A stretch of 63,641 nt of DNA, filler included, from Stramenopiles sp. TOSAG23-6 (GCA_900128565.1; 8 parts of 8 records of this genome joined end to end with filler, not necessarily neighbours in it); one strand, 5' to 3'; shown: positions 55 through 63,641, counted from the whole stretch's first letter. Notes: generated by a model not told the origin, from the letters alone. Made by a program: numbers and translations.

Positions 55-1991
55 ACATTATTGCTTTCCTGTTCGCCTCCGAGTCTACTGACAGGAAAAA
101 ATATTGAAAACAAAAAAAGTCAGTTAGGAAAAGATATTGGAACTGCATGTGTAACATTTATTGCAAATCGTGATAATGATAATCTACATGCAAATACAAT
201 ACATGTATGTTTTCATTTCATTTTTCTTATCCAATTACGAATTTATGGTTTTATTTCATACGAAATTTCGTACCTAACAGAATTAAAAAAAAAAAAAAAT
301 TTGAAATATTTTTACAAATATATGGTGTTGCAACTTGGGTAATTATTGGTTGGATTGGCTTTCATAAAATAGAGCGATGGAGCTTGCATCTTCCCGATGT
401 TGTAAACAAGGCACCCACAGAGGATACTGAAAATAATTCAATAGAAAATAATGGAAAAGCTAATCGTTTACAAAGTCATTTTTTACCAGCACCAGTGAGT
501 GTTTTATCCATGAATATATCAAATACTCTACTTGGTGTGGGCTGCAGTGACGGATCCCTTATTATCTATAGTGTTGATGTATTTCTTGATGTATTTTGGG
601 CAGAGACTCGCTTACCTGCTGCAATAACCGCAGTTGCATTCCATCGTGATAGTTATGTTGTTGCTGGTACTGCAAACGGGGCGATACAAGTATTCTCAAT
701 TATGCGACTTGCACCTGACAAAGATGGTTCACAGATAAATAGTAGTTTCCTATCTAGACAGGCATTATTAATCATGCCTGTTACAGAAGAATCTAGTAAG
801 GAGTGTACCAGTTCATGGTTGCCACGGGTCAATCGATTAGTAGCTGCTGTCGCCCCAGATGGTCATGGTATTGTTTCCGCATCATGTATATCCAATGACA
901 TTGCAGCTGCAATAGTCACTAATATAAAAGGTAGGGTTTTTTTACTTGAATTAGATAGCGGAGAAGTTGTCGGTGCACTAACACCATCCTCTCAACTAAT
1001 TAATGCTCGAAATGGTCCAAAGTTTTCAGCACCATCCCTAACAGTTTTGAGTGGTAAATTCATCGCAGCTGCCCTTGAAGTGAATGATGAAGATGCACAA
1101 GCAGCAGCAAGAATGGGAGGAGGAGATGAAGACTTGGGAAACAATGACTCCAATAGTTCTTTTCCAAATTCTGCCATGAAAAGCGAAATGGATAAGCGAT
1201 TGTTTGGTAATCCAGCATTTTCAGCGCCATCGCTTTCCTTATTCTATCCATGGGAAATTCTGTCCTTTTTCTTTCCCGCAGTATCAACAGCGATAAAACA
1301 AGTTAGTTTGACGGAAAAAGCTGATTTGGCAGCCAAGTATTTCAATTTAGCAACACCTGAACAGCGAAGAGACAAAGCTGTCCAGTTGCAACTTGCACCA
1401 AAGGATTTCCGTGGTGATAGTATGTTATTTGGAACAGGTTCACGAGCAGGTTCACGAGCAGGTTCTCGAGCAGGTTCTCGAATAGGTTTGCAAAATGGGT
1501 CTCGATCTGGATCGCGTCGAAGTATAACTGGTTCAAGACATGGCATAGGCACTCCCTCGAGAAATAGTATTAGCTCGAGACACGGAACTCCGAAAGGTTC
1601 AATTGCTGGTACACCATTAAGGACTGGAACAGATATGTCTCGAAGATCTGGGAAAAGTGAACGATTGAGGGCAAAATATAGTAATATGGGTGCTGTGCCA
1701 TCAACAACAGAAATAGATGAAGAAGAATTTCTAGGGTTCAATTTTAATGCACCGGAAAGGATTGTAATTCTTGAAGAAAAAACTAGCACTGAACAGCATA
1801 ATACATTACCAAACTCGAGACGAATAGTAGTAACAGGCGATGGTAATATCTCAACCAAATTTATGATGCGAAGGATGCAAGGTGGGAATAAAGCACGAGA
1901 ATCTATGATAACAAAACTTGGGCAAAGAAGAGATCAACTTTTGGAACTCATGCTTTTGAATGGAAGAGAACAACTTGGTAAATTGAATTGA
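55..1991 (+). CDS. WD40/beta-propeller-like protein, 5'-truncated; exons 55-204 and 324-1991
   Basis: Removing intron 205-323 joins ORF 61..342 to ORF 207..1991 in phase 0 (..NTIH|GVATW..). WD40-like strands LGVGCSDGSLIIY and VVAGTANGAIQVF; GSRA repeat in the tail. Confidence 0.6.
205..323 (+). other. Family intron, GT-AT, 119 nt
   Basis: CAT|GTATGT ... CATACGAAATTTCGTACCTAAC ... CAAATATAT|GGT; restores frame. Confidence 0.8.
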
Positions 1992-2080
1992 TTTACAATC
2001 TAAAATATATAATAAACAAAACCTAATAATAATAAATATGCAGTTGAATCAGTTGAAGCCTCTTGGACTTTTTTGTTAAT

Positions 2081-2412
2081 TCAGTGTTCTCTTACAACGC
2101 TTCCAACTGCCATAGCGGAACCCATGAATGCCCCCGCTCCCAATAAAGTTTTGTCAATACGTCGGGTACGTAAAAAACAACCCGCAATACCCACTGTTGC
2201 GCCATTTAATGTATTCTATATGTCAAATTTAAAATGAAAATGAATCCCCAATAGTGTTACTACAAATGGGTTGAAAAATTATTTGTACCAATAAAACCTA
2301 CCAAAACAAATGATAGTGCACCTTTTTTTACTCTAGATTGTAGGCTTACGTGCTGCTGTGGACTAAAGTGAGCATAATTCTCTCTATCAGATTTATTGTG
2401 GTCAAATACCAT
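2081..2412 (-). CDS. Small membrane protein, Romo1/Mgr2-like (81 aa); exons 2412-2302 and 2215-2081; absent from the ORF track
   Basis: Spliced translation MVFDHNKSD..RVKKGALSFVL|NTLNGATVGIAGCFLRTRRIDKTLLGAGAFMGSAMAVGSVVREH*. The Gly-rich C-terminal helix resembles Romo1. The intron 2216-2301 is canonical (GTAGGT..ATAG). Confidence 0.5.
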
Positions 2413-2789
2413 GCTTAACAACTTCTTCAATATGTAATAGAAAAATAAGTTTTATGAAGAGTTAGAGTTTGAGATGAGACAAACGCGTGATGTTTGTCAA
2501 ATTGTCAATGCGCGCGACACGTGGCAGATATTTTCGGATTTTTCGTGTGATCGTGAAAAATTTATGATAATTGTCATACAACAACCAATTTTTGGCAAGG
2601 CTTTTTGGGCTTTTTATGTCCGATTCCGGTCCACTTCACTGTCATCAGGTATAGGCTGTTGGTGTTATATAGGATTAAGTTGGAACAAAGTGTATATTTT
2701 ATATATATTTTTATAAGTTTTAAAAAAAAAAGATCATGTCTTTGTAACATCGGTACCAGGTACCAGTACCTACTACATAGCGCGATATT

Positions 2790-4425
2790 TTAATTTGCCT
2801 CTTCAATTTCCCTTTGTAATTCAGATTGTACATATCCAAGTGTACCTTCATTCAATCCTGCTAAGAGTTTACCCTTAATTTCCGCCCGAAGAATTGTATC
2901 TCGCTTATTATTATACACCCAATTCCAAAGCATCAACCCCGAGAAAGAAAAATAAAAAAAAACTGGAATAATAATTCGAATTCTTCTAACCCATAGTGCC
3001 ACATTCGCGTCTCGTTTTGTTTCGTTATCTTTCTTTTCAAAATTGAATTTTCTTTCTTTGTCGCGATCACCTTCCATTAAAACAAGTACATGTATTTTGG
3101 AAAAATAATTCAAAAAAAAAATGTTAGGTACAAATTTTTCATACAAAAAAAAAAAAATAATTTGAGATTCATAATAAAAACCTACTTCCTCCTCCTCATC
3201 CAAAACAGCATGCCACTGAAATCGCGTGACTGCAACTACTATTATAGTTGAGGTCACAAAACATAGTAATAAATACCAATGAACCCAAAGTACACCACTT
3301 GTGGCTGAAATTGAAGAATTATGATGTAACGTTCCAATGTAAGTCACAGCTGTCAGAAACCCAATACATGTATTTGTGAAGAAATATTTTTTTAAATTTT
3401 CATTTTTTGTTAGGTACAGATTTACGTACGAAAATTAAAATTTCATTTTTTTTTAAATGATACATTTTTAACATACATGCAGTAGATAACTGTGCTGAAA
3501 AAAACTTTTGATGTGAAATGAAGAGTGACGTCATTGCAAAAGTAATGGTAGCAAACAATGGTATCAAATATGGCGAATGAGAAATCCGTTTAATCAACAT
3601 TGCTCCAATGACACGTTCAACATTCTCAGTTGAAAATAGTGAGGGCTCTTTTGCGTCACGAACCTGCCAAGATTCCAATTTCCAAGTGCTGCTCTTTGTC
3701 GGTTTAAATTTTGTAGGGACGTCATAACCTAGCAGATCAATAGACTTTGGACCGTAACGCAATGAACCCAGCTTTATTTGGATAATTTGTCTATCAAACG
3801 GATAACCCCATAAATCAAAGCTAAGAGTCACTTTGCTCGTCATTCTCTGTGATAGCATGAGTTCACCGTTTCGAAACCAAAGAGCCGCTTCTGGAACAAC
3901 TGACGCTTCTGATGAATTGACTACATAGATATCCGGGACCCACACTGGCCACTCGTAGTCTTTCCCATTAAAATGACCATGAAGATATCCCATGGTCGTG
4001 ATGCCATTGAGTCTGTGGTCTTTCCAACTTGTTGTGACAACAAGGTCAACATGAGCGAGTTGTCTGGTTGGGTCTACTTCGTACCATTTTAAAATATCCA
4101 AACCGCAGAGTATCTTATCTGTTTCGATAGTTTTTTTTGTTCTTCCAGGTCGAACTTCTGGATTGTAATCTTTTGGAACCTTGAAATTGTCTAATCCGCT
4201 GGATTGAGAAGCCGCGGCTTCCTTTTCAATTGCAGATGACAGAGAAGTTCCAAATAATGGAAGATTGTAATAGCGACCGTGACCTTTTTCTGGGAAGGTT
4301 GTTTTTGTAGGTGAATTTTCAAATCGAAAGGAATTAATTATTTGAGGTGATACATTGACATATCCTGCAATGTTGTAGATTTGCAATAAGAGCAACACTC
4401 CTGTTAATTTACTGTTCAGAAACAT
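2790..4425 (-). CDS. Pentameric ligand-gated ion channel subunit (Cys-less Pro-loop); exons 4425-3477, 3367-3186, 3089-2790
   Basis: Signal peptide, YN..VRP, WKDHRL, VWVPDIYVVN, YPFDRQ motifs and four hydrophobic segments after removing two GT-AT introns. Confidence 0.8.
3090..3185 (-). other. Family intron, GT-AT, 96 nt (in frame, no stop)
   Basis: GAA|GTAGGT ... TTTGTACCTAAC ... TTCCAAAATACAT|GTA. Confidence 0.7.
3368..3476 (-). other. Family intron, GT-AT, 109 nt
   Basis: GCAT|GTATGT ... CGTACGTAAATCTGTACCTAAC ... CACAAATACAT|GT; phase 1 on both sides, giving the M2-like helix STAC-IGFLTAVT. Confidence 0.8.
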
Positions 4426-4649
4426 ACTTCAAAGGAATATTGTGAAATATTGCAGAGGTATTAGATAGATACGAATACTTGTTAAGATCTAACGCACGAT
4501 CGACGGTTATCGCCGTGGACAATTCGAATTAATTATAACGGATCAAATCCGAAATCAATTTCCGAATTTCGATCAATTTTTATTGCGCATCGACTCAGGA
4601 TAGCAAAACGATAACTAAACTACATTTGGTTTGAAAGCTTCCAATTGCA

Positions 4650-4985
4650 ATGGCTTCTGCTCCAACTCCATCATCACCTGGGTGGGAACCTTCACCTGAT
4701 ACATTCCCAGGATCTGGCACATACATCCTTGAAAGTTCAAGTAGTATGAGACGTAGTTTACCTTTTGCAGCAAGTAGTATGAGACATAGTTTACCTTTTG
4801 CAGCAAGACGTCGTCTAGATTCAACTTCTCTACCTGTTCAAGCAATGGCTCAAGTAAATAACTTTCTAAACAACCAAATGAACCAGCTTCATAGTAGCCA
4901 TGAAAATAGCGAACATCGATATTACTATGCTCAGAGAAATTTGGAGAGTTTGCTTTTGAAAAGATCATATAACCCAATTGCATGA
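4650..4985 (+). CDS. Hypothetical protein (111 aa) with a 33-bp internal duplication
   Basis: ATG-initiated ORF divergent from the channel gene; SSMR(R/H)SLPFAA occurs twice. Confidence 0.35.
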   Translation: MASAPTPSSPGWEPSPDTFPGSGTYILESSSSMRRSLPFAASSMRHSLPFAARRRLDSTSLPVQAMAQVNNFLNNQMNQLHSSHENSEHRYYYAQRNLESLLLKRSYNPIA

Positions 4986-5260
4986 ATCTTTCACGTGTCA
5001 GGGACTCATTTTGGTTACTTAATTAACTCCATTTGCAACAGAATCACATTGTGCACTTGCCTGTGTGTCCTGATTATAGCAAACATGTTTTTTTCAGTTG
5101 GACAACAAATGTTCTCAAATCATCATATTTGGTCACCTAATCTACTCTCCAAACGCAAACGCAACATACCAAGTCCACCAAGTCTTTAAAATCAAACGCA
5201 ATAAACTACACTACTATATATTTATCTGATAAAAATTATATAAAAAAATATTTTTGTTCG

Positions 5261-6478
5261 TCATACTTCAACATTGCGTACACAATCATTTTCTTCTCCA
5301 GGTAATTCCACAGAGAAATCAGCATAAAGGACAATATTTCTTCCTTCAAATGGCAAAATCTGTTTTTTCAACCTACTATCTTTCTCTAATAAATACGTAA
5401 TAAAATCTTCATACGTTGTAACGCTAAAGCCTGAACGTAATTTTCTATTTGGAAATAAACATGGAAACACGCAACACGGAACAACTGCACATAATGTATT
5501 AAACCGGATAGCTGCATCTACAATAGCTTCAGTTGCCTGATCAGGATGCATTCCCACAAAAAGAGAGGCACCAACCAAGATAGATCGATTTAATTTTACA
5601 AATTCATCAGTTGCGGCAAAGAAAGCTGCAATATGATCTGGTGGAGAAGCACCAACTTTACGCAAGCGCTTCGCGTTTCGTGCATTTAATCTAGTTTTAC
5701 GAAGCATGGGATCAATCACGGTACTTTTTATCTTGCAAAGTAACAGAAATTCAATTGATAATTGCCCCTTTCCGCCAGCAACATCAACTATTCCATTTCC
5801 TCGACTTAATTTTTTAACGCTAAAAGTATCGATGAGCCACTGAGCCATTACTTTAGCTCGAAACCGTTTTTCTTTGTTACTACCATGGCTTATATTCTGT
5901 TTATTGCAATAAGCACTCTTACGTTTTTTACTATTACTATGTTTTACCTTTTTCATTCTTTCAGTGAGACATTTTGGCTCAGCTTTTCGAGCAGAGACAA
6001 AAGCTTCGTTACGATACTGGAACATTGCCGATATTGAAGTTGCATTACTTGAACGTGCATCATTGTTCAATTTTCTTATAGACGAAAGGGCGTTGAATCC
6101 AGCATGTTGGGCCTCGACTGAAATCCTTGAGAGAACACGATAAGAAGTCACTACTGGTAAATTATCCTCGCCTGCGTCAACTCCCAACTTACAATCTAAC
6201 TCTAAACGCATATTATGTTGTAACATTGAAGATTTTTCTGGGAATGGGGCCGTTGCAGTCCAGTATTTTGAAGAACGCGAGAACACAACTTGACACAATT
6301 CACCATTATCAGTCTGGATAGTCAAAAATGCTAAATTTTTGCCCAGGCAACGCCTTCTTACCACAAATCCAGTTATTGACTTGTCAGTAATAGACTTGTC
6401 AGAATTATTTCCTAAATGTAACCCAGACACTGATGATATGCGACTATGATTTTGCATCTTGTTTGGCGATTCCATCAT
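5261..6478 (-). CDS. Putative SAM-dependent methyltransferase with N-terminal OB-fold-like region
   Basis: VDVAGGKG motif I, GMHPDQATE, VVPCCVF; N-terminal GFVVRRR.LGKNLAFL is OB-like. Confidence 0.6.
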   Translation of the reverse strand: MMESPNKMQNHSRISSVSGLHLGNNSDKSITDKSITGFVVRRRCLGKNLAFLTIQTDNGELCQVVFSRSSKYWTATAPFPEKSSMLQHNMRLELDCKLGVDAGEDNLPVVTSYRVLSRISVEAQHAGFNALSSIRKLNNDARSSNATSISAMFQYRNEAFVSARKAEPKCLTERMKKVKHSNSKKRKSAYCNKQNISHGSNKEKRFRAKVMAQWLIDTFSVKKLSRGNGIVDVAGGKGQLSIEFLLLCKIKSTVIDPMLRKTRLNARNAKRLRKVGASPPDHIAAFFAATDEFVKLNRSILVGASLFVGMHPDQATEAIVDAAIRFNTLCAVVPCCVFPCLFPNRKLRSGFSVTTYEDFITYLLEKDSRLKKQILPFEGRNIVLYADFSVELPGEENDCVRNVEV

Positions 6479-6764
6479 GAGTACTTACAACTATCTAGAA
6501 ACTATTTGTTCATTACGTCGAATTTTATAGTAATATGTCTACTAGATTTACTTATTTTAATAATTTTAAGCGATATCAATGACTTTTGATCCGTTGCGCT
6601 GGCTTGAAAAATACGTTAAAATATACGATTTTTGAATTTCAGATTTGGATACGATACGACGATACATTCGTTCGTATCGATACCACACTTTTTAAACAAA
6701 GATTCAAAAAAATTGGATCAGATAATACACTTATATTGTCTTTGTGTGATTTGTTGACAAAACT

Positions 6765-7889
6765 ATGCTTAATGCGAAAGAGCAAATGTGCCTTTTAATA
6801 TTCGTTTTATTTCTAAGCACACTTACAGTTTCAGTGGCGCAAATAAACGAATATTCTAGTTCCAGTGAAGAAACTAATATTGATCCTAAGATTAAAGCAA
6901 GTATAAGTTTCCCTACTTTGAACAAAGATTTGTTTAAAAATGTCCTTGATGCTGCGAAAGAGATAAATATGCGAAATTCGTTTGTTAATATACATTTGTT
7001 TAACGCAGGTTACATAGAGATGGAGAAAAGTTGGATATGCAACGTGAAGAAATTTGGTCATTCAATTCTTATCAATACGCTTTTTATAGCGACTGAACAG
7101 GCAGCCTTTAAAGCTATCAAAGATTTTTCGAAAATAATTGTGGTACCACTAAATGTTGTTTTATATCAACATACTGCTCCTTCCCTTCTCACTTACGGTG
7201 AAAACGCATACTATTCCTTTATGCTTTTTAGAACCAGAGTAATTGAAGCGCTTCTTAATTCGGATATTACTGTTTGGTTAACCGAAGCTGATGCAGTATG
7301 GAGAAGAGATGTTACAGATGTTATATGGAAGCATGCAAATGACGATTCTATTGACATCGCAGCTCCAAATGATTCCACAAGTACCACAATGGATGGAAAA
7401 AATACGATCGTAGGGATTAATATGGCGCTCCTTCGTCCAACTATCCCCACAAAAAGGATTTGGAAGAAAATGCAAATTCTATTTGAAGATAGAATCAAAA
7501 CATCCATGCAAAATAATGATGTATTAACTGAACCAGAAAATGAGTTATTAACTCAACTTTTGGCCAAAGACAAAACTTTGAATTTTATTCAACTTGATCC
7601 GCAAGTTTTCACTTCTGGTTTGTGGTACAATAAAAATTTCAGTTCTTTCCGGAGCCTTATACGCAACCCAGCAGTGATTCAAAATAATTGGATCGTTGGT
7701 GGTGTTAACAAAGTTAAACGCATGAAACTTTGGAACCACTGGTTCTTGGATGAAGCAGGAAAGTGTCGAAAAACAAAAGTATGGACTATTTCAGAAAAAA
7801 ATCCTCTTCAAAAACTAAAAACAGTTGTGAAAGATGAAGAATTGGCAATATTGGGTGACCAAAAAACTGATGAGTGTGTAAAAAACAAA
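6765..7889 (+). CDS. N-terminal part (nucleotide-diphospho-sugar transferase, GT77-like) of a multidomain glycan-modifying protein
   Basis: Signal peptide, SWICN, WLTEADAVW, NNWIVG..KVKRMK...HWFL. The last 55 nt (7835-7889) equal 15979-16033. Confidence 0.7.
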
Positions 7890-7989
7890 NNNNNNNNNNN
7901 NNNNNNNNNNNNNNNNNNNNNNNNNNNNNNNNNTTAATTAATTAANNNNNNNNNNNNNNNNNNNNNNNNNNNNNNNNNNNNNNNNNNNN
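7890..7989. other. Artificial contig linker N-TTAATTAATTAA-N; also at 15879-15978, 23867-23966, 31851-31950, 39817-39916, 47769-47868, 55714-55813
   Basis: Identical 100-nt spacers carrying six-frame stops; contig lengths decrease monotonically. Confidence 0.97.
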
Positions 7990-8043
7990 AAATTTCGTAC
8001 CTAACGATTTTTTTTACTAAAAAAATATTTTTCCAAAATACAT

Positions 8044-9980
8044 ACATTATTGCTTTCCTGTTCGCCTCCGAGTCTACTGACAGGAAAAAATATTGAAAAC
8101 AAAAAAAGTCAGTTAGGAAAAGATATTGGAACTGCATGTGTAACATTTATTGCAAATCGTGATAATGATAATCTACATGCAAATACAATACATGTATGTT
8201 TTCATTTCATTTTTCTTATCCAATTACGAATTTATGGTTTTATTTCATACGAAATTTCGTACCTAACAGAATTAAAAAAAAAAAAAAATTTGAAATATTT
8301 TTACAAATATATGGTGTTGCAACTTGGGTAATTATTGGTTGGATTGGCTTTCATAAAATAGAGCGATGGAGCTTGCATCTTCCCGATGTTGTAAACAAGG
8401 CACCCACAGAGGATACTGAAAATAATTCAATAGAAAATAATGGAAAAGCTAATCGTTTACAAAGTCATTTTTTACCAGCACCAGTGAGTGTTTTATCCAT
8501 GAATATATCAAATACTCTACTTGGTGTGGGCTGCAGTGACGGATCCCTTATTATCTATAGTGTTGATGTATTTCTTGATGTATTTTGGGCAGAGACTCGC
8601 TTACCTGCTGCAATAACCGCAGTTGCATTCCATCGTGATAGTTATGTTGTTGCTGGTACTGCAAACGGGGCGATACAAGTATTCTCAATTATGCGACTTG
8701 CACCTGACAAAGATGGTTCACAGATAAATAGTAGTTTCCTATCTAGACAGGCATTATTAATCATGCCTGTTACAGAAGAATCTAGTAAGGAGTGTACCAG
8801 TTCATGGTTGCCACGGGTCAATCGATTAGTAGCTGCTGTCGCCCCAGATGGTCATGGTATTGTTTCCGCATCATGTATATCCAATGACATTGCAGCTGCA
8901 ATAGTCACTAATATAAAAGGTAGGGTTTTTTTACTTGAATTAGATAGCGGAGAAGTTGTCGGTGCACTAACACCATCCTCTCAACTAATTAATGCTCGAA
9001 ATGGTCCAAAGTTTTCAGCACCATCCCTAACAGTTTTGAGTGGTAAATTCATCGCAGCTGCCCTTGAAGTGAATGATGAAGATGCACAAGCAGCAGCAAG
9101 AATGGGAGGAGGAGATGAAGACTTGGGAAACAATGACTCCAATAGTTCTTTTCCAAATTCTGCCATGAAAAGCGAAATGGATAAGCGATTGTTTGGTAAT
9201 CCAGCATTTTCAGCGCCATCGCTTTCCTTATTCTATCCATGGGAAATTCTGTCCTTTTTCTTTCCCGCAGTATCAACAGCGATAAAACAAGTTAGTTTGA
9301 CGGAAAAAGCTGATTTGGCAGCCAAGTATTTCAATTTAGCAACACCTGAACAGCGAAGAGACAAAGCTGTCCAGTTGCAACTTGCACCAAAGGATTTCCG
9401 TGGTGATAGTATGTTATTTGGAACAGGTTCACGAGCAGGTTCACGAGCAGGTTCTCGAGCAGGTTCTCGAATAGGTTTGCAAAATGGGTCTCGATCTGGA
9501 TCGCGTCGAAGTATAACTGGTTCAAGACATGGCATAGGCACTCCCTCGAGAAATAGTATTAGCTCGAGACACGGAACTCCGAAAGGTTCAATTGCTGGTA
9601 CACCATTAAGGACTGGAACAGATATGTCTCGAAGATCTGGGAAAAGTGAACGATTGAGGGCAAAATATAGTAATATGGGTGCTGTGCCATCAACAACAGA
9701 AATAGATGAAGAAGAATTTCTAGGGTTCAATTTTAATGCACCGGAAAGGATTGTAATTCTTGAAGAAAAAACTAGCACTGAACAGCATAATACATTACCA
9801 AACTCGAGACGAATAGTAGTAACAGGCGATGGTAATATCTCAACCAAATTTATGATGCGAAGGATGCAAGGTGGGAATAAAGCACGAGAATCTATGATAA
9901 CAAAACTTGGGCAAAGAAGAGATCAACTTTTGGAACTCATGCTTTTGAATGGAAGAGAACAACTTGGTAAATTGAATTGA
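8044..9980 (+). CDS. Duplicate copy of the WD40-like gene
   Basis: Same as 55..1991. Confidence 0.55.
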
Positions 9981-10778
9981 TTTACAATCTAAAATATATA
10001 ATAAACAAAACCTAATAATAATAAATATGCAGTTGAATCAGTTGAAGCCTCTTGGACTTTTTTGTTAATTCAGTGTTCTCTTACAACGCTTCCAACTGCC
10101 ATAGCGGAACCCATGAATGCCCCCGCTCCCAATAAAGTTTTGTCAATACGTCGGGTACGTAAAAAACAACCCGCAATACCCACTGTTGCGCCATTTAATG
10201 TATTCTATATGTCAAATTTAAAATGAAAATGAATCCCCAATAGTGTTACTACAAATGGGTTGAAAAATTATTTGTACCAATAAAACCTACCAAAACAAAT
10301 GATAGTGCACCTTTTTTTACTCTAGATTGTAGGCTTACGTGCTGCTGTGGACTAAAGTGAGCATAATTCTCTCTATCAGATTTATTGTGGTCAAATACCA
10401 TGCTTAACAACTTCTTCAATATGTAATAGAAAAATAAGTTTTATGAAGAGTTAGAGTTTGAGATGAGACAAACGCGTGATGTTTGTCAAATTGTCAATGC
10501 GCGCGACACGTGGCAGATATTTTCGGATTTTTCGTGTGATCGTGAAAAATTTATGATAATTGTCATACAACAACCAATTTTTGGCAAGGCTTTTTGGGCT
10601 TTTTATGTCCGATTCCGGTCCACTTCACTGTCATCAGGTATAGGCTGTTGGTGTTATATAGGATTAAGTTGGAACAAAGTGTATATTTTATATATATTTT
10701 TATAAGTTTTAAAAAAAAAAGATCATGTCTTTGTAACATCGGTACCAGGTACCAGTACCTACTACATAGCGCGATATT

Positions 10779-12414
10779 TTAATTTGCCTCTTCAATTTCC
10801 CTTTGTAATTCAGATTGTACATATCCAAGTGTACCTTCATTCAATCCTGCTAAGAGTTTACCCTTAATTTCCGCCCGAAGAATTGTATCTCGCTTATTAT
10901 TATACACCCAATTCCAAAGCATCAACCCCGAGAAAGAAAAATAAAAAAAAACTGGAATAATAATTCGAATTCTTCTAACCCATAGTGCCACATTCGCGTC
11001 TCGTTTTGTTTCGTTATCTTTCTTTTCAAAATTGAATTTTCTTTCTTTGTCGCGATCACCTTCCATTAAAACAAGTACATGTATTTTGGAAAAATAATTC
11101 AAAAAAAAAATGTTAGGTACAAATTTTTCATACAAAAAAAAAAAAATAATTTGAGATTCATAATAAAAACCTACTTCCTCCTCCTCATCCAAAACAGCAT
11201 GCCACTGAAATCGCGTGACTGCAACTACTATTATAGTTGAGGTCACAAAACATAGTAATAAATACCAATGAACCCAAAGTACACCACTTGTGGCTGAAAT
11301 TGAAGAATTATGATGTAACGTTCCAATGTAAGTCACAGCTGTCAGAAACCCAATACATGTATTTGTGAAGAAATATTTTTTTAAATTTTCATTTTTTGTT
11401 AGGTACAGATTTACGTACGAAAATTAAAATTTCATTTTTTTTTAAATGATACATTTTTAACATACATGCAGTAGATAACTGTGCTGAAAAAAACTTTTGA
11501 TGTGAAATGAAGAGTGACGTCATTGCAAAAGTAATGGTAGCAAACAATGGTATCAAATATGGCGAATGAGAAATCCGTTTAATCAACATTGCTCCAATGA
11601 CACGTTCAACATTCTCAGTTGAAAATAGTGAGGGCTCTTTTGCGTCACGAACCTGCCAAGATTCCAATTTCCAAGTGCTGCTCTTTGTCGGTTTAAATTT
11701 TGTAGGGACGTCATAACCTAGCAGATCAATAGACTTTGGACCGTAACGCAATGAACCCAGCTTTATTTGGATAATTTGTCTATCAAACGGATAACCCCAT
11801 AAATCAAAGCTAAGAGTCACTTTGCTCGTCATTCTCTGTGATAGCATGAGTTCACCGTTTCGAAACCAAAGAGCCGCTTCTGGAACAACTGACGCTTCTG
11901 ATGAATTGACTACATAGATATCCGGGACCCACACTGGCCACTCGTAGTCTTTCCCATTAAAATGACCATGAAGATATCCCATGGTCGTGATGCCATTGAG
12001 TCTGTGGTCTTTCCAACTTGTTGTGACAACAAGGTCAACATGAGCGAGTTGTCTGGTTGGGTCTACTTCGTACCATTTTAAAATATCCAAACCGCAGAGT
12101 ATCTTATCTGTTTCGATAGTTTTTTTTGTTCTTCCAGGTCGAACTTCTGGATTGTAATCTTTTGGAACCTTGAAATTGTCTAATCCGCTGGATTGAGAAG
12201 CCGCGGCTTCCTTTTCAATTGCAGATGACAGAGAAGTTCCAAATAATGGAAGATTGTAATAGCGACCGTGACCTTTTTCTGGGAAGGTTGTTTTTGTAGG
12301 TGAATTTTCAAATCGAAAGGAATTAATTATTTGAGGTGATACATTGACATATCCTGCAATGTTGTAGATTTGCAATAAGAGCAACACTCCTGTTAATTTA
12401 CTGTTCAGAAACAT
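10779..12414 (-). CDS. Duplicate copy of the pentameric ligand-gated ion channel gene
   Basis: Same as 2790..4425. Confidence 0.75.
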
Positions 12415-13249
12415 ACTTCAAAGGAATATTGTGAAATATTGCAGAGGTATTAGATAGATACGAATACTTGTTAAGATCTAACGCACGATCGACGGTTATC
12501 GCCGTGGACAATTCGAATTAATTATAACGGATCAAATCCGAAATCAATTTCCGAATTTCGATCAATTTTTATTGCGCATCGACTCAGGATAGCAAAACGA
12601 TAACTAAACTACATTTGGTTTGAAAGCTTCCAATTGCAATGGCTTCTGCTCCAACTCCATCATCACCTGGGTGGGAACCTTCACCTGATACATTCCCAGG
12701 ATCTGGCACATACATCCTTGAAAGTTCAAGTAGTATGAGACGTAGTTTACCTTTTGCAGCAAGTAGTATGAGACATAGTTTACCTTTTGCAGCAAGACGT
12801 CGTCTAGATTCAACTTCTCTACCTGTTCAAGCAATGGCTCAAGTAAATAACTTTCTAAACAACCAAATGAACCAGCTTCATAGTAGCCATGAAAATAGCG
12901 AACATCGATATTACTATGCTCAGAGAAATTTGGAGAGTTTGCTTTTGAAAAGATCATATAACCCAATTGCATGAATCTTTCACGTGTCAGGGACTCATTT
13001 TGGTTACTTAATTAACTCCATTTGCAACAGAATCACATTGTGCACTTGCCTGTGTGTCCTGATTATAGCAAACATGTTTTTTTCAGTTGGACAACAAATG
13101 TTCTCAAATCATCATATTTGGTCACCTAATCTACTCTCCAAACGCAAACGCAACATACCAAGTCCACCAAGTCTTTAAAATCAAACGCAATAAACTACAC
13201 TACTATATATTTATCTGATAAAAATTATATAAAAAAATATTTTTGTTCG

Positions 13250-14467
13250 TCATACTTCAACATTGCGTACACAATCATTTTCTTCTCCAGGTAATTCCAC
13301 AGAGAAATCAGCATAAAGGACAATATTTCTTCCTTCAAATGGCAAAATCTGTTTTTTCAACCTACTATCTTTCTCTAATAAATACGTAATAAAATCTTCA
13401 TACGTTGTAACGCTAAAGCCTGAACGTAATTTTCTATTTGGAAATAAACATGGAAACACGCAACACGGAACAACTGCACATAATGTATTAAACCGGATAG
13501 CTGCATCTACAATAGCTTCAGTTGCCTGATCAGGATGCATTCCCACAAAAAGAGAGGCACCAACCAAGATAGATCGATTTAATTTTACAAATTCATCAGT
13601 TGCGGCAAAGAAAGCTGCAATATGATCTGGTGGAGAAGCACCAACTTTACGCAAGCGCTTCGCGTTTCGTGCATTTAATCTAGTTTTACGAAGCATGGGA
13701 TCAATCACGGTACTTTTTATCTTGCAAAGTAACAGAAATTCAATTGATAATTGCCCCTTTCCGCCAGCAACATCAACTATTCCATTTCCTCGACTTAATT
13801 TTTTAACGCTAAAAGTATCGATGAGCCACTGAGCCATTACTTTAGCTCGAAACCGTTTTTCTTTGTTACTACCATGGCTTATATTCTGTTTATTGCAATA
13901 AGCACTCTTACGTTTTTTACTATTACTATGTTTTACCTTTTTCATTCTTTCAGTGAGACATTTTGGCTCAGCTTTTCGAGCAGAGACAAAAGCTTCGTTA
14001 CGATACTGGAACATTGCCGATATTGAAGTTGCATTACTTGAACGTGCATCATTGTTCAATTTTCTTATAGACGAAAGGGCGTTGAATCCAGCATGTTGGG
14101 CCTCGACTGAAATCCTTGAGAGAACACGATAAGAAGTCACTACTGGTAAATTATCCTCGCCTGCGTCAACTCCCAACTTACAATCTAACTCTAAACGCAT
14201 ATTATGTTGTAACATTGAAGATTTTTCTGGGAATGGGGCCGTTGCAGTCCAGTATTTTGAAGAACGCGAGAACACAACTTGACACAATTCACCATTATCA
14301 GTCTGGATAGTCAAAAATGCTAAATTTTTGCCCAGGCAACGCCTTCTTACCACAAATCCAGTTATTGACTTGTCAGTAATAGACTTGTCAGAATTATTTC
14401 CTAAATGTAACCCAGACACTGATGATATGCGACTATGATTTTGCATCTTGTTTGGCGATTCCATCAT
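13250..14467 (-). CDS. Duplicate copy of the putative methyltransferase
   Basis: Same as 5261..6478. Confidence 0.6.
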   Translation of the reverse strand: MMESPNKMQNHSRISSVSGLHLGNNSDKSITDKSITGFVVRRRCLGKNLAFLTIQTDNGELCQVVFSRSSKYWTATAPFPEKSSMLQHNMRLELDCKLGVDAGEDNLPVVTSYRVLSRISVEAQHAGFNALSSIRKLNNDARSSNATSISAMFQYRNEAFVSARKAEPKCLTERMKKVKHSNSKKRKSAYCNKQNISHGSNKEKRFRAKVMAQWLIDTFSVKKLSRGNGIVDVAGGKGQLSIEFLLLCKIKSTVIDPMLRKTRLNARNAKRLRKVGASPPDHIAAFFAATDEFVKLNRSILVGASLFVGMHPDQATEAIVDAAIRFNTLCAVVPCCVFPCLFPNRKLRSGFSVTTYEDFITYLLEKDSRLKKQILPFEGRNIVLYADFSVELPGEENDCVRNVEV

Positions 14468-14753
14468 GAGTACTTACAACTATCTAGAAACTATTTGTTC
14501 ATTACGTCGAATTTTATAGTAATATGTCTACTAGATTTACTTATTTTAATAATTTTAAGCGATATCAATGACTTTTGATCCGTTGCGCTGGCTTGAAAAA
14601 TACGTTAAAATATACGATTTTTGAATTTCAGATTTGGATACGATACGACGATACATTCGTTCGTATCGATACCACACTTTTTAAACAAAGATTCAAAAAA
14701 ATTGGATCAGATAATACACTTATATTGTCTTTGTGTGATTTGTTGACAAAACT

Positions 14754-15878
14754 ATGCTTAATGCGAAAGAGCAAATGTGCCTTTTAATATTCGTTTTATT
14801 TCTAAGCACACTTACAGTTTCAGTGGCGCAAATAAACGAATATTCTAGTTCCAGTGAAGAAACTAATATTGATCCTAAGATTAAAGCAAGTATAAGTTTC
14901 CCTACTTTGAACAAAGATTTGTTTAAAAATGTCCTTGATGCTGCGAAAGAGATAAATATGCGAAATTCGTTTGTTAATATACATTTGTTTAACGCAGGTT
15001 ACATAGAGATGGAGAAAAGTTGGATATGCAACGTGAAGAAATTTGGTCATTCAATTCTTATCAATACGCTTTTTATAGCGACTGAACAGGCAGCCTTTAA
15101 AGCTATCAAAGATTTTTCGAAAATAATTGTGGTACCACTAAATGTTGTTTTATATCAACATACTGCTCCTTCCCTTCTCACTTACGGTGAAAACGCATAC
15201 TATTCCTTTATGCTTTTTAGAACCAGAGTAATTGAAGCGCTTCTTAATTCGGATATTACTGTTTGGTTAACCGAAGCTGATGCAGTATGGAGAAGAGATG
15301 TTACAGATGTTATATGGAAGCATGCAAATGACGATTCTATTGACATCGCAGCTCCAAATGATTCCACAAGTACCACAATGGATGGAAAAAATACGATCGT
15401 AGGGATTAATATGGCGCTCCTTCGTCCAACTATCCCCACAAAAAGGATTTGGAAGAAAATGCAAATTCTATTTGAAGATAGAATCAAAACATCCATGCAA
15501 AATAATGATGTATTAACTGAACCAGAAAATGAGTTATTAACTCAACTTTTGGCCAAAGACAAAACTTTGAATTTTATTCAACTTGATCCGCAAGTTTTCA
15601 CTTCTGGTTTGTGGTACAATAAAAATTTCAGTTCTTTCCGGAGCCTTATACGCAACCCAGCAGTGATTCAAAATAATTGGATCGTTGGTGGTGTTAACAA
15701 AGTTAAACGCATGAAACTTTGGAACCACTGGTTCTTGGATGAAGCAGGAAAGTGTCGAAAAACAAAAGTATGGACTATTTCAGAAAAAAATCCTCTTCAA
15801 AAACTAAAAACAGTTGTGAAAGATGAAGAATTGGCAATATTGGGTGACCAAAAAACTGATGAGTGTGTAAAAAACAAA
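14754..15878 (+). CDS. Duplicate copy of the GT77-like N-terminal part
   Basis: Same as 6765..7889. Confidence 0.65.
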
Positions 15879-15985
15879 NNNNNNNNNNNNNNNNNNNNNN
15901 NNNNNNNNNNNNNNNNNNNNNNTTAATTAATTAANNNNNNNNNNNNNNNNNNNNNNNNNNNNNNNNNNNNNNNNNNNNTGAAGAA

Positions 15986-18900: not shown

Positions 18901-19798
18901 ATACATTGGTAATGATGAATACTATGTTGTAGACTCTAATACTAAACGTAACCTATCTATAAAAGATATAGGCGATGGAAGATATCGAATCACTTGTAAT
19001 GATTCTAATTTAAAAACAATTTCCTTTACCGCAATTCTACAATATTCTTGTGGAGTTGGGAAATTATCACCCCCAGTAAAAGACAAATGGATTGATGCTG
19101 GTGCACTGAATACCCACTTTAATGGGGTAATTACCTGTAAATATGATACAAAGAAAGAGAACAGAAATGGTATGCCATCATTGAGGTTAAATCCAATTCA
19201 CCTCAATAAATCAAAACTTTATGCGATTGGAGACTCTATGATGAATCAATTCATATTCTACGACAACAAGAAACCGCGCTATAACTCTGTTCAGTTTAAG
19301 AAGATTCAGTATAAGCTAAATCTTGATACATATGATACATATCTTGCAGAAATTTTTGAGATTTTACCTCATAATGCTGATTCAATTCTATTACTCAATA
19401 GCGGTTTGTGGGACTTGTTAGACGACTATTTTGACCCTTACTTTTATAACCATGAAATTGCTCTCGATAAACTTATACGTACAATTAAAGCTGAATTTCC
19501 AAATACTCGCGTTATATGGAAAGGTATGACAGCCGTGCATATCCACCGAGTGGATTGTGGATGTATTTTTGAATGTTTAAAGCGCGTAAAATACATGAGC
19601 TCCTCACGAGCGTCTCAAATTGAAGTCATTCAAAAGAAAATAGTTGATCGATACAATATCACATACATACCACAGTATGATTTCACATATACAAGTGCTG
19701 ATAAGTGTCGACCAAACGATGGTCGTTATTATACTGAAGATATGAATAATATTCTCTGGGACAAGGCATTTAATAACCGAGACCCAAAAGATGGATAA
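15986..19798 (+). CDS. C-terminal part of the multidomain protein: Cys-rich repeats, GT31 galactosyltransferase, carbohydrate sulfotransferase, SGNH-like domain
   Basis: GT31: RQEIRDTW, VIKTDEDCYV, IEDVAVG. Sulfotransfer_2 PAPS motifs: FTIPRTGCT, FLREPQERLLSAY. SGNH-like: AIGDSMM, LNSGLWD, DGRYY. Confidence 0.8.
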   Translation: MAILGDQKTDECVKNKLPNCTNIVSPQKKESNSMPKVLSTLSGQKFKSFYFVDCYYLASNSKITNWTDDTSSWEQCASWAFQHHANWFVLHDSHPMTANNLARNTDIVGTCGFGGAYHTEGIAHPSECLLDDKNRHVGGIGIVAVYKVSKAKIKDAVLCMNETCSLEQKERQLAEISPFKWVDSNVRLLDGPRNFSTDFAYMLESGVKVAYRVPNIIRECLHCVYSHYDQTCNDSTILSIGVLSYDSLKRQEIRDTWGQLSCVFFIVGKKGGLWPEQEAMENRDIILIDIEEHYNILPYKTYLWFYLAHRWFPDAEYVIKTDEDCYVDTVAFNAELTRLKPDYFGSLSPDRKPIRDPNHKRYLSTESYGEDLLPKYASGFGYALSRKARECLLSKVATQTHITIEDVAVGIIMKECGILLHSSTKFDLNNIAGTTRYPGSMFHYSFIDCFHHKSQKQVKYWAQQRMTTSECAKWAVLVHRSKWFVLEFPQALNDGRASCGTGGSYNKEGEARPKSLCVTNQYGDPIGGRNVFAVYSVNQTHGSVRPQQLLAPWVVKHTSSHSSDGLTLAVIHERLPSKKSFAKFTDSCSASFKFLDCYSHKSGKQIEAWADRIRKGITWRQCTEWAVGNGAHWFAYNFERHHFDHSREFMHATCGYGGSYDTDSNLSNLCSFKKNFIKWPRGVFAVYAISDDNENALPTFSMDSGKHSVTKQDIIMIKNWTSSPIVLEKYKLLIFTIPRTGCTLLRKLSRRMMGFENYLDGIDGEIPHNPQYNGLRYLNSYTTTQATNMMTSPSWTRAIFLREPQERLLSAYLKSNKTFAAKKCRRDSLTFEEFIYLRETCTDEHWNPLENFMDYHWWQYINFFGNLRTVALDTKRLLKKVGAWTEFGASGWYNMNKRLGWRKFEKDPKRISDAFAEGVNTNTREKLVQYYTPELWNAVNDKLYKPPFCYKTTEIQMIEDDVFETFSGSMRKYIGNDEYYVVDSNTKRNLSIKDIGDGRYRITCNDSNLKTISFTAILQYSCGVGKLSPPVKDKWIDAGALNTHFNGVITCKYDTKKENRNGMPSLRLNPIHLNKSKLYAIGDSMMNQFIFYDNKKPRYNSVQFKKIQYKLNLDTYDTYLAEIFEILPHNADSILLLNSGLWDLLDDYFDPYFYNHEIALDKLIRTIKAEFPNTRVIWKGMTAVHIHRVDCGCIFECLKRVKYMSSSRASQIEVIQKKIVDRYNITYIPQYDFTYTSADKCRPNDGRYYTEDMNNILWDKAFNNRDPKDG

Positions 19799-47439: not shown

Positions 47440-47926
47440 TTGTGAGAGATTTGTCGTAGAATTCGTTTCAAATTCTTGTATATGAAATATTGTTTCTTTT
47501 AAATTTATGTATAAAAAGGAGAAAGTATTTCGAAAATATTATTTGAATATATTTGTTTATTAGTTTAAATATTATTTGAATATATTTGTTTTCATTGAAG
47601 CACTACACAAATTATTAAACTCTGTATCAAAAGAGTCCAACCAGGTTCGATCTAACACTGGAGCTTTCATAAAATTCTTTTCTGGGGACGTTTCGGTTTC
47701 AACTTTTATTGTCAATGTATTTTGGAAAAATATTTCAAAAAAAATCTAAAAAAATTTGTTAGGTACAANNNNNNNNNNNNNNNNNNNNNNNNNNNNNNNN
47801 NNNNNNNNNNNNTTAATTAATTAANNNNNNNNNNNNNNNNNNNNNNNNNNNNNNNNNNNNNNNNNNNNATTTTGTACCTAACAAATTTTAGTTTTTTTTT
47901 TTTTGAAATATTTTTCCAAAATATAT

Positions 47927-61253: not shown

Positions 61254-61284
<31 letters not shown>

Positions 61285-62352
61285 TAANTTNAATTTAAAT
61301 TTAAATTAAAAAAAAAAAAAAAAAAATTTAGAAAGAAAAAACCTACGAAATATTCGGACAAATGCAAAGCTTAACTAATAAATTTGGTACAAGACTAAGT
61401 TTTACATGTTTACCATCACATTTTGAATCACCAATGCGTAATTTATGAAATTCAGCTCTTAATGTTGATGTATTGTGAAAAAAATATTTTTTTTTTTTAA
61501 ATTTTTTTTTTTTTTGGAAATTTGTTAGGTACAAAATTTCGTATGAAAAAAAAAAAAAAAAATTGTAAAATTTTAAAATTCATAATAAAAAAGGTACCTA
61601 AACGTTCTGAATAGTACATTGAATTTTTCGCTGCATAATCAATATCCATAAATATATTATTAGATTTTGTATTGATTCTGTTTTTACCATTTATATTATT
61701 ATGTGTGCTTCTGTTTTTCATTTTTGTTTTCGTATCAATATTTGTACCATTTTTTTTCGTATCAATATTTGTACCATTTTTTTTCCTATCAATATTTATA
61801 CCATCCATCCAATAACCACCTGAATAATTATCACGTTTATTTCTATGTTTTGCATATAATGAATCTAATTGTTTTTCCAATGTTTTACGTTTTTCTATAT
61901 TTCGTGTAGTTGTAACTGTATTTCGTATTTCAATAATTTTATTTAAAATACGTTCATATTTTGTAAAGGAATATTTTTTTTTTTTTTCAAAAAATTTTTG
62001 AAAATTTGTTAGGTACAAAATTTACTACGAAAAAAAAATTTTTAATTTTTTTTTTTTTTTAATATAATTATATAATTATAATTTGAAAACGTACATGAGC
62101 TGCAAATAATGCTGCATCAGCAGCATCTGCTTTTGCTGTTGCCTTTTGAAGCTCAATAGTACATGAAGTTACCTTAGATTCAATAGGGTTAGGGTTAGGG
62201 TTAGGGTTAAAGTTTGAATTAAAAGAAGATTTTCTTTGTTGTAAAAAATTATCTCTTTTTCTAGGGTTAGGGTTAGGAGTATGCATTTCATTTTTTTGTG
62301 TGTTTTTTTGAGGAGATGATGTGAAGCGTCTTGTGGCACAAATCTGTCTCAT
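60594..62352 (-). CDS. Hypothetical low-complexity/coiled-coil protein, multi-exon
   Basis: GT-AT family introns 61956-62094 (phase 0) and 61468-61597 (phase 1) join three ORFs in frame; the last junction near 61200 is unresolved. Confidence 0.5.
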
Positions 62353-62511
62353 TGGATGTCGTAGTTTTCTTTTTCTCCATTTTTTCTTTGCATCTTTTAG
62401 TGTTACATTACCAATACCACAATAATTATCATTGTTTAGAAGACTGTAGAGTAAAAAAATATATTTTTTTAATTTTTTGATTTTTTTTTTTTTTTTTTTT
62501 TTTTTTGAAAA

Positions 62512-62552
<41 letters not shown>

Positions 62553-62842
62553 ACGAAATTTTGTACCTAACAAATTTTTAGATTTTTTTTTTTTTTTTTC
62601 GTACATGTTTGGAAAAGCAGTAAAACTTAATGTATTACGTGAGAATCAAATACCGTCGTTAATTATGTCACAGGTAAAACCTAATGTTTGGCCTATCTCG
62701 AGTGTTAATACTTTAAGTAATGGTCATGCACCAACAGAGTCTGATACAAATGATCTTGGTAATCAATATCAGGTATTTTTTAATTATTTAAATTAGGGTT
62801 AGGGGTGAGGCCAATTTTTTTTTTTTTTTTTTTTTTTCAAAA

Positions 62843-62873
<31 letters not shown>

Positions 62874-63217
62874 TTTTTTTTAAAAAAATTTTTGAAAATT
62901 TTTTAGGTAAAAAATTTCCTACGAAAAAAAAATTTTTAATTTTTTTTTTTTTTTAATATANNNNNNNNNNNNNNNNNNNNNNNNNNNNNNNNNNNNNNNN
63001 NNNNNNNNNNNNNNNNNNNNNNNNNNNNNNNNNNNNNNNNNNNNNNNNNNNNNNNNNNNNNNNNNNNNNNNNNNNNNNNNNNNNNNNNNNNNCGAAATTT
63101 TGTACCTAACATTTTTTTTTTTTTTTTGTTTGAATTTTTTTTTTAAATTTTTTTCAAACTTTTTTGTACCTAACAAATTTTTTTCAAAATTTTTTGAAAT
63201 ATTTTTCAAAAATACAT

Positions 63218-63518
63218 GTATTAATGATGTCAACGCTTCACAAGAATTATTATCATCGTTATATAATTGGCCAACGGATTCCGACAGCATGTATTTTGTT
63301 TTTCAAAAAAAAAAAAAAAAAAAAAAAAAAATATTTTTTCACAATACATGAGATCTCTGACAGATGATGATGGTGATGGAATTCGTTTTAAAAATTCTCA
63401 TTATGGAAGACCAACATTGGATAATATGAAAGACAGTCTACATTGGCTTGTTGATGGTGCACAACCTGGGGATACGTTATTTTTTCATTTTTCAGGTCAT
63501 GGTTCGCAACAAAAAGAT
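63218..63518 (+). CDS. Metacaspase (peptidase C14), internal exons 63218-63290 and 63350-63518
   Basis: (C)INDV, M-RSLTDD, WLVDGAQPGDTLFFHFSGHGSQ; acceptors AATACAT| at 63217 and 63349, donors at 63291 and 63519. Confidence 0.85.
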
Positions 63519-63641
63519 GTTTGTTTCTTTTATTATTATTATTATTATTTTTTTTTTTTTGAATTTTTTTTTGATTTTTTTTTTCATACGAAATTTTGTA
63601 CCTAACCAAAAAAAAAAAAAAAAAAAAATTTTTTCCAAAAA

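Follow-up and report, generated by a model that had tools for sequence, protein, structure and literature searches.

A homologous family of probable introner-type introns ending predominantly in AT in genomic DNA of Stramenopiles sp. TOSAG23-6

Genes and the intron family

The window analysed here, a stretch of 63,641 nucleotides (nt) of DNA from Stramenopiles sp. TOSAG23-6 (GCA_900128565.1), carries eukaryotic genes (importin-beta, AGMO, Sec7, metacaspase, a Cys-loop receptor ligand-binding domain, thioredoxin and TPR/EF-hand) and contains a family of short introns which begin with GT and mostly end with AT in place of AG. The window consists of eight contig-like pieces of falling length, each shorter than 8 kb, with N runs about every 7.9 kb; the spacers between the pieces (7890-7989, 15879-15978, 23867-23966, 31851-31950, 39817-39916, 47769-47868 and 55714-55813) are composed of 44 N, TTAATTAATTAA and again 44 N. 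Therefore the span 205-63641 given in a preliminary description of the sequence is a set of joined pieces and no single locus. Piece 1 (1-7889) is identical to piece 2 (7990-15878), so that naive scans count each feature of 1-7889 twice; the unique sequence amounts to seven pieces and 54,979 bases, to which the family counts refer. The layout looks like that of the longest contigs of a fragmented, single-cell-like assembly.

The G+C content is 24-41%, and the genetic code looks standard, since the open reading frames (ORFs) end with TGA in ten, TAA in seven and TAG in one of 18 cases. A 9.9-kb stretch was compared with public runs by the share of sampled words, and the matching runs were small single-organism runs and seawater metagenomes. 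The share of words was 0.30-0.61 in independent seawater metagenome runs and 0.05-0.13 in poly-A metatranscriptome runs, the latter values being counted as evidence of nothing. The source is best explained as the nuclear genome of a marine eukaryote that is AT-rich and has not been cultured. The data cover about 55 kb of this one organism, and a claim for a whole lineage goes beyond that scope.

The preliminary description had listed the introns as separate items, and it was overlooked that they form one homologous high-copy family. A family model built from sequence only found 31 members in the unique bases, eight of them cut by contig ends and at least nine additional to the 18 listed before. 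The members make up 6.9% of the sequence, yet they hold 8 of the 14 contig ends, which marks the core as a high-copy genomic repeat. In the alignment of 16 introns, A/T runs differing in length stand between three conserved blocks, namely the 5' block GTAYGTTTT, a 25-nt core TTTCRTACGAAATTTTGTACCTAAC and a 21-nt 3' block AAATATTTTTYCAAAATACAT. Pairwise blastn gave near full-length identities of 77-93%, the best pairs extending over 60-108 nt, and E values of 1e-5 or lower, the similarity expected of introners, in 142 of 231 intron pairs; as the comparison was run without a low-complexity filter, some of this similarity is due to poly-A/T. On this evidence the kinship of the copies is established.

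So is their sense-strand placement in genes: all 31 members have the same orientation as the flanking ORFs, and all model matches with E below 0.005 are sense matches. The sole antisense match below E 0.01 was that of one member's partly palindromic core on itself. Such sense-only placement fits an RNA-level, strand-specific process. One copy is situated upstream of the start codon of the metacaspase gene (62447-62614, plus strand; GTAGAG...GTACAT, recognised by the model), where it could be an intron of the 5' untranslated region, and an inverted 29-nt copy of the core (62905-62933) lies within another intron.

Within the core, the almost perfectly palindromic TACGAAATTT[C/T]GTA immediately precedes CCTAAC, and there is also a second donor-like sequence, GTACGA (e.g. 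34047-34075, minus strand). As core variants occur without compensatory changes, the palindrome may serve as a protein-binding signal in DNA and not as a hairpin in RNA. The long first exon of the Sec7 gene contains, at 54385-54583 (plus strand), an inverted-repeat pair resembling the intron core (GTACC.AAATT.TGTACCTAA). The family model matches weakly at 54501-54564 (E 1e-4), ...AAATACAT comes next, and the frame is open throughout; the two readings are an intron that escaped recognition and an element turned into exon sequence. The intron-core pattern gave no match in metagenome, genome and viral contig collections, and the 21-nt 3' motif was found at seven metagenome loci, none of which is a family member according to the model.

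Intron borders and splice signals

All 18 segments of the earlier list were found to begin with GTA and to end with AT, and GTAYGT, named there as the usual 5' hexamer, is present in 14 of them (GTATGT in eight, GTACGT in six; four have another hexamer). The agreement of donor and acceptor phases, read from the longest open frame on each side, is complete in the 17 segments having both exons, where phases fit by chance in about one third of cases; the segment 23769-23865 was left out of the count because it reaches the contig end and its downstream exon is lost. The rebuilding of conserved motifs was borne out as well: the importin-beta, AGMO and Sec7 sequences rejoin without gaps against homologues or Pfam profiles, and the metacaspase motif LTDD was seen. 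These comparisons confirm, at the level of sequence, that the intervening segments are real and precisely bounded, and establish their borders.

The importin-beta intron (28477-28574, plus strand, GTATGT...ATACAT) is in phase 2, the codon AT/G giving Met. Its removal produces the join ERTLGP/MVEQALPLLL, which shows no gap against 14 of 14 homologues, and the Pfam profile HEAT_EZ breaks off at position 24 where exon 1 ends and continues with positions 27-55 from residue 2 of exon 2.

In the AGMO gene (plus strand) three junctions within the catalytic domain, YQF/WIHTE, NYGGAL/IIWDRMFGTF and TFDA/CAANVEHP, are gap-free against 15 homologues. Intron 1 (37272-37377, GTACGT...AAAAAT, phase 1) follows an exon ending with TTCT and splits the Trp codon T/GG of YQFWIHTE, which is flanked by positions 83 (end of exon 1) and 86 (restart) of the FA_hydroxylase profile. 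Intron 2 (37494-37610, GTACGC...TG; model E 1.5e-16), whose removal gives the join NYGGAL/IIWDRMFGTF, ends with a TG two bases after TAC, and intron 3 (37705-37859, GTACGT...ATATAT, phase 1), supported by phase and homologues, contains no ACCTAAC. Intron 4 (38508-38667, GTATGT...ATTTAG), identified by matrix and alignment, combines the family 3' motif with an AG end. Intron 5 (38775-38870, GTACGT...ATACAT, phase 0) agrees in phase and model, and its border is less certain owing to a 7-residue gap in the nearest homologue. The closest AGMO relative is a EukProt gene model with 65% identity; the importin relatives lie on ENA/Logan contigs.

The Sec7 gene (plus strand; Sec7 domain by Pfam at 54773-55402) has an intron GTACAT...GTTTAT in phase 0 (54631-54772; phase, model), an intron GTATGT...CTATAT in phase 0 (54818-54921; GIAQFLL/QNKQLDK), after which the next exon begins at position 42 of the Sec7 profile, and an intron GTATGT...ATACAT in phase 2 (55032-55146). 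Profile positions 42-77 lie in one exon and 79-134 in the next, the split codon supplying position 78. No Sec7 domain was found by Pfam in the exons at 61598-62547. In the metacaspase gene (plus strand) LTDD and FHFSGHG were both found; the intron 62773-63217 (GTATTT...ATACAT, model) includes an assembly gap, two sense core motifs and the inverted core copy mentioned above, and the intron 63291-63349 (GTATTT...ATACAT) is in phase 2 and supported by phase.

Further complete introns in agreement with the reading frame are found in the WD-repeat gene (205-323, plus strand, GTATGT...ATATAT, phase 0), where there is no AG within 40 nt on either side, and in the Cys-loop receptor gene on the minus strand. 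The latter are GTAGGT...ATACAT in phase 0 after an exon ending with GGAA (3090-3185) and GTATGT...ATACAT in phase 1 with the 7-nt direct repeat CATGTAT at both junctions (3368-3476). The ligand-binding domain of this protist Cys-loop receptor, a pentameric ligand-gated channel, is encoded at 3477-4428 (minus strand), and the two introns of the gene lie in the transmembrane part. The minus strand also carries the intron 34001-34106 (GTACGT...ATACAT, phase 1, T/GG), the best family-model match, which leads from an epimerase-like exon to an orphan exon. This orphan exon, of 456 codons (32631-33998, minus strand) and downstream of the epimerase/NmrA-like exon, has no homologue among 7965 candidates from a collection of 5.8 billion proteins and no Pfam match.

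Other minus-strand introns supported by phase and model are 40141-40237 (GTATGT...ATACAT, phase 0), 56722-56895 (GTATGT...ATTCAT, phase 1), 61468-61597 (GTACCT...ATACAT, phase 1, upstream exon ending with TTAG) and 61956-62094 (GTACGT...AAATAT, phase 0), as are the two of the Cys-loop receptor gene and the one before the orphan exon. The segment 57038-57314 on the same strand had been taken for one simple intron; its GT and AT ends and its phases fit, but it is a composite of a full element (57234-57314) and a half element (57038-57089), so that one 277-nt intron or two abutting ones may be present. Recognised by the model are also the intron 23769-23865 (plus strand, GTACGT...ATACAT) after ...FDEDKSGT and two minus-strand members with irregular 5' ends, both ending with ATACAT: 32536-32630, in which the donor GTACTG is off-phase and GTGTCT 13 nt upstream would fit, and 41210-41307, in which the frame-compatible 5' end is GGATGT and not GT.

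The incomplete members include the 3' part at a contig start ending with ...CCAAAATACAT (1-54, plus strand; model E 3.6e-08, 3' matrix 24.6 bits), the 3' part at a contig end terminating in ATACAT (47715-47768, minus strand) and that at a contig start terminating in ATATAT (47869-47926, plus strand), the last two found by matrix and model. The 5' parts, recognised by the model, are 31951-32010 (GTACGT..., E 5e-12) and 39917-39971 (GTATGT...), both on the minus strand and cut by the contig start, 55814-55920 (GTACGT..., minus strand), which runs into the contig start, and 63519-63641 (GTTTGT..., plus strand), which follows ...FHFSGHGSQQKD and is cut by the contig end.

The terminal consensus of the 18 listed introns is far beyond chance. 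Positions +1 to +3 are GTA in all, +5 is G in 15 and +6 and +7 are T in all; at the other end the positions -5 to -1 are T, A, Y, A and T in 16, 16, 17, 18 and 18 introns, respectively. Over the whole family 26 of 27 defined 5' ends start with GT, as U2-type donors do, and a branch motif CTAA[C/T/G], mostly GTACCTAAC and in accordance with the U2-type YTRAY, is present in 20 of 22 introns. The 16 of the 18 listed introns which have the motif show a distance of 24-57 nt from it to the 3' end (24 nt in one, 34-57 nt in the others). The form ACCTAAC resembles the major-spliceosome, yeast-like signal.

It is the 3' end that departs from the U2 type: the 27 defined 3' ends are AT in 25 cases, AG in one and TG in one, and a general terminal AG is absent. 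The dominance of AT-ending introns proposed in the preliminary description thus stands within the window, subject to the exceptions AGMO intron 2 (TG) and AGMO intron 4 (AG). A scan with a matrix made from positions -21 to -3 only, on both strands and with a cut-off of 15 bits, left the terminal dinucleotide free. It gave 23 matches, the next two bases being AT in 18, AG in two, TG in one, CA in one and AA in one. Three of these are probably no intron ends: the CA match falls within an ORF and lacks a branch motif, the AA match is in poly-A, and one of the AG matches is the reverse complement of another intron's 5' end. The matches outside the training set were AT in six cases, TG in one (AGMO intron 2, confirmed by homology) and AG in one (AGMO intron 4).

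Between the branch motif and the 3' end, AT occurs 98 times in 20 introns and ACAT four times; in the importin-beta intron the protein is restored by the terminal ACAT and not by an earlier in-frame one. Since there are so many internal ATs, the dinucleotide alone is insufficient to define the site, and a longer motif, TAYAT after AAATATTTTTYCAAAA, must set it. The dinucleotide AG was found 16 times in the introns against 43.8 expected, no one of 2000 shuffles being as low, and GA 65 times. This depletion, together with one AG-ending member, suggests that AG recognition is probably retained and not replaced.

The use of nearby AG acceptors, raised in the preliminary description as an alternative, was examined in 19 complete introns, of which 18 do not end with AG, up to 40 nt to each side of the 3' end; eight of these 18 have no in-frame AG within that distance. 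The only AG near the importin-beta 3' end, at +11, is out of frame, and in-frame AGs at AGMO intron 1 and in the Sec7 gene would cost 10 and 4 residues, respectively, that are kept by homologues or profiles. Judged by reading frame and homology, usable AGs are absent with one exception, 63291-63349, where an in-frame AG 3 nt downstream stays a possible acceptor.

The two cut sites resemble each other. The upstream exon has C/T at -3 in 16, A at -2 in 13 and T at -1 in 16 of the 18 introns and ends with AT in 11, and the 3' side of the intron has C/T at -3 in 17 (C in 12) and A and T at -2 and -1 in all. The YAT before both cuts is the AT counterpart of the symmetry MAG/GT...YAG/. Moreover, the first nine bases of the intron and the last seven before the AT form an imperfect inverted repeat, GTAT(G)TTTT against AAAATAC; the resulting end consensus, AT/GTAT(G)TTTT against AAAATAC/AT, is short, AU-rich and absent from some copies. 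By their sequence the ends look like those of a small inverted-repeat element with a target duplication of 2 bp (AT) to 4 bp (CATG). The helix between the ends was present in the minimum-energy fold of three of six introns.

Elsewhere in the window, an uninterrupted ORF of 1275 amino acids (42570-46397, plus strand) matches the piggyBac-type transposase domain DDE_Tnp_1_7 with E 1.2e-43. Inverted repeats of at least 14 nt do not flank it, no tie to the intron family was seen, and the transposase may be domesticated. A second, intron-less ORF of 1287 amino acids (15935-19798, plus strand) joins galactosyltransferase, sulfotransferase and GDSL-lipase-like domains. Six telomere-like interstitial runs, (TTAGGG)2-3, were found at 55597, 56127, 57493, 60554, 62189-62206 and 62793, in the last two pieces only; one of them lies within a coding exon, the other strand reading NPNPNP, and one within an intron.

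Removal and origin of the introns

The explanation that we regard as probable is removal by the spliceosome at a 3' site YAU whose position is set by the conserved 3' block, the introns descending from, or being homogenised as, an introner-like element. We infer from the sequence features removal at the RNA level, the spliceosome as agent and spread by transposition. With each copy would come its own GTAYGT donor of the U2 type and a branch site, GTACCTAAC, like that of yeast, and the 3' cut would fall after ...TAYAT, most often ...AAAATACAT/G, in place of after YAG. The removed unit would be the element plus one copy of a target duplication of 2-4 bp, as in transposon-derived introners. As the duplicated target would be (C)AT and not AG, A-U would have to be accepted at the 3' end in the second catalytic step, its place being set by the long conserved 3' block.

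The earlier suggestion that this lineage splices most of its introns at (Y)AT can be followed as far as the dominance of AT and the U2-like donor and branch in the window, but its extension to a whole lineage is based on 55 kb. A single family with inverted-repeat ends and a YAT flank suggests instead that the change in 3' splice-site recognition may belong to a mobile element of the introner type and not to the introns of a lineage as a whole. It is tempting to speculate that the major spliceosome uses A-U as a routine 3' dinucleotide, and that this arose with an introner resembling a miniature inverted-repeat transposable element (MITE) whose AT duplication supplies both YAU/ sites; we hold this fuller version tentatively, at slightly less than even odds.

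Several observations speak against spliceosomal removal at a YAU site of introner-like elements. The family copies are not independent observations, and the AG depletion may in part have been inherited from the common ancestor sequence and not selected, a shared ancestry which weakens that test. The duplication-like flank is present in only 13-16 of the 18 copies and could equally reflect pairing preferences of small nuclear RNAs (snRNAs), and the terminal inverted repeat is short and AU-rich; six introns fold no better than their shuffles (z from -2.3 to +1.0, one below -2). The member at 32536-32630 fails to restore the frame with its best donor, in a gene without homologues, and that at 41210-41307 has GG at its frame-compatible 5' end. 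The window contains no snRNA (no Rfam match) and no splicing-factor gene, and the protein collection searched contains no protein of the organism derived from spliced transcripts; for importin exon 2 the best non-self match at near lengths reached 57%, and among shorter lengths over residues 1-110 there was none. To our knowledge, no structural basis has been described for the pairing of G(+1) with U(-1) in the second step.

The same introns could be read in an AT...AC register, starting two bases earlier and ending with ...ATAC, the deviant copies having degenerate 5' ends. Where the exon ends with AT (11 of 18) and the intron has C at -3 (12 of 18), both registers give the same mRNA. Moreover, 41210-41307, which is GG...AT in the GT register, becomes AT...AC when shifted, and AGMO intron 2 (GT...TG) would then end with ...AC, Leu still being encoded. 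Against the shift, the upstream exon has an ending other than AT in seven of the 18 (GGAA, TTCT, GCTT, TTTT, TCTT, ATTT and TTAG) while GTA is still found at +1 to +3; five exons lack A at -2 and two lack T at -1, and only 11-12 of the 18 introns would end with AC. At AGMO intron 1 the shifted register gives L, present in none of 15 homologues, whereas the GT register gives F, in agreement with 13 F and 2 Y. The shifted 5' end ATGTAYGT differs both from the U12-type ATATCC and from the consensus of U2-type AT-AC introns. The register GT...AT is favoured as the one that, on sequence grounds, would fit all copies, and the AT...AC register seems unlikely.

Another improbable reading invokes a transformed minor (U12-like) spliceosome, which would tolerate non-AG ends and choose the 3' site by position. 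The motif ACCTAAC is intermediate between the U2-type TACTAAC and the U12-type TCCTTAAC, and a study of Physarum (10.1101/2020.10.12.336362) reportedly described a large expansion of minor introns. The 5' end GTATGTTTT agrees with GTATCCTTT at seven of nine positions, and GT-AT and GT-TG introns are documented as U12-type rarities (PMC1557818). The donors nevertheless have G at +5 in 15 of 18 and T at +6 in all, where the U12 type, by its consensus RTATCCTT, needs CC. U12-type branch sites lie about 10-26 nt from the 3' end, compared with the 24-57 nt measured here, and the motif is ACCTAAC and not the U12-type TCCTTAAC.

A non-spliceosomal RNA removal, in which the paired inverted-repeat ends (exon AU + GUAU... 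with ...AUAC + AU) define two staggered cuts, is quite doubtful. Staggered-cut excision is said to have been proposed for the nonconventional introns of euglenids and the introner elements of Amoebophrya. Pairing of the consensus ends could give a helix about 10 bp long in which the two cuts are staggered by 2 nt, and the three minimum-energy folds noted above contain it. The TG-ending intron is cut 2 nt past TAC like the AT-ending ones, and in Amoebophrya inverted and direct repeats accompany non-canonical introner ends (PMC7789003). However, such a mechanism leaves the invariant GTAYGT and ACCTAAC unexplained; introns without TAC (37272-37377, 54631-54772, 56722-56895) still end with AT, the fold z-scores are insignificant and no covariation exists between the ends.

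Elimination at the DNA level would make the segments transposon-derived internal eliminated sequences, excised from a somatic genome by a domesticated transposase in the manner of ciliates. The short AT-rich segments with inverted-repeat ends and a 2-bp duplication-like flank, one copy of which is left behind, are what such elements would offer, and the piggyBac-type ORF lies in the window. Enzymes of the piggyBac type, however, target TTAA/TA and not AT. Excision of DNA has no cause to follow the transcribed strand, so that the complete strand bias (31 of 31 members in gene sense, none independently antisense), in place of the lack of orientation bias seen in ciliates, contradicts it. The donor and branch consensus would be unexplained, stop codon usage is standard, and the segments are present in the assembly and, by the word shares given above, in seawater metagenome runs. 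Elimination of this kind is very improbable.

An artefact of single-cell amplification, assembly or concatenation, for which the fragmented source with pieces below 8 kb, N gaps and one piece present twice could be cited, is hardly credible, as 31 copies occupy codon-exact positions in unrelated genes, much of the stretch recurs by word shares in independent metagenome runs, and chimeras would not yield a conserved donor, branch site and end.

Comparison with known systems

The 3' AG is among the most invariant signals of gene expression, being read early by U2AF35 and, in the second step, by way of RNA-RNA contacts that involve the 5' G and the branch A. If the spliceosomal removal favoured here were confirmed in RNA, it would represent a genome-wide change of a core splicing signal and a natural experiment, in a free-living organism, on the choice of the second-step site, the donor and branch being otherwise yeast-like. 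Introner invasions would then not need to respect GT-AG, and the fuller version with a MITE-like introner would be the first case in which the insertion chemistry of a mobile element has rewritten a core splice signal genome-wide while donor and branch stayed canonical. The YAT symmetry at both cuts ties the question of the 'protosplice site' to target-site duplication. Surveys and gene finders requiring AG or AC would be blind to such genomes, and the gene models of this organism and of its relatives would be systematically broken.

In the literature covered (full text, with supplements and subscription journals outside coverage) no GT-AT-dominant genome is described, including the available parts of PMC9903769 and PMC5778133, and GT-AT introns were met only as a rare category. 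Two Tara papers on single cells and metagenome-assembled genomes make no mention of unusual splice sites, and Mirusvirus and other marine surveys report GT-AG (PMC12768974).

The nonconventional introns of euglenids have variable termini and a stable helix between their ends, whereas the termini in the window are conserved and the fold z-scores range from -2.3 to +1.0. Group II introns have the consensus 5' GUGYG...AY 3', the last base being a pyrimidine, and the termini GUAYG...AU are similar to it, a resemblance only; the segments in the window are about 100 nt long, have no domain V/VI and lie in nuclear genes. In Fritillaria borealis it is the 5' end of the introns that is changed, to AG-AC/AG-AT. 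The introns of hemistasiid diplonemids have non-conserved GC-rich ends (CT-CG, TG-GC etc., each below 12%; PMC12621601). Non-GT-AG introns dominate in Fritillaria, these diplonemids and the euglenids, as they do here, but for none of them is a GT...AT form combined with a CTAAC branch reported.

Conserved GT-AT and GT-TG introns are known as mammalian rarities, both U2-type (DGCR2, ARS2) and U12-type (DEADC1, SLC24A6), and seem to be spliced (PMC1557818). They share with the present introns a normal donor and an AT or TG end, both deviant ends occurring in the window; they are, however, a handful among hundreds of thousands, whereas here such ends are the rule and belong to one family. Most introns of Amoebophrya, a protist of the sea, are non-canonical and repeated, with inverted-repeat ends and direct repeats of 3-5 nt across the junctions (PMC7789003). 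No conserved termini or branch motif are present and U1 was not found there, in contrast to the present family, in which donor and branch are of textbook U2 type and only the 3' dinucleotide deviates.

The closest likeness is to the introners of Micromonas, Aureococcus, fungi and many aquatic protists, which likewise consist of many similar short introns in unrelated genes, in gene sense; inverted-repeat ends, a duplication-like flank and a removed unit comprising the element and one flank copy may be further features in common. Surveys of introner families accept only AG or AC as 3' ends (PMC12130899), whereas the family in the window ends with AT in 25 of 27 cases. The AT-ending segments described here are real and unusual, and they are best filed as probable introner-type spliceosomal introns with a non-AG 3' splice site.

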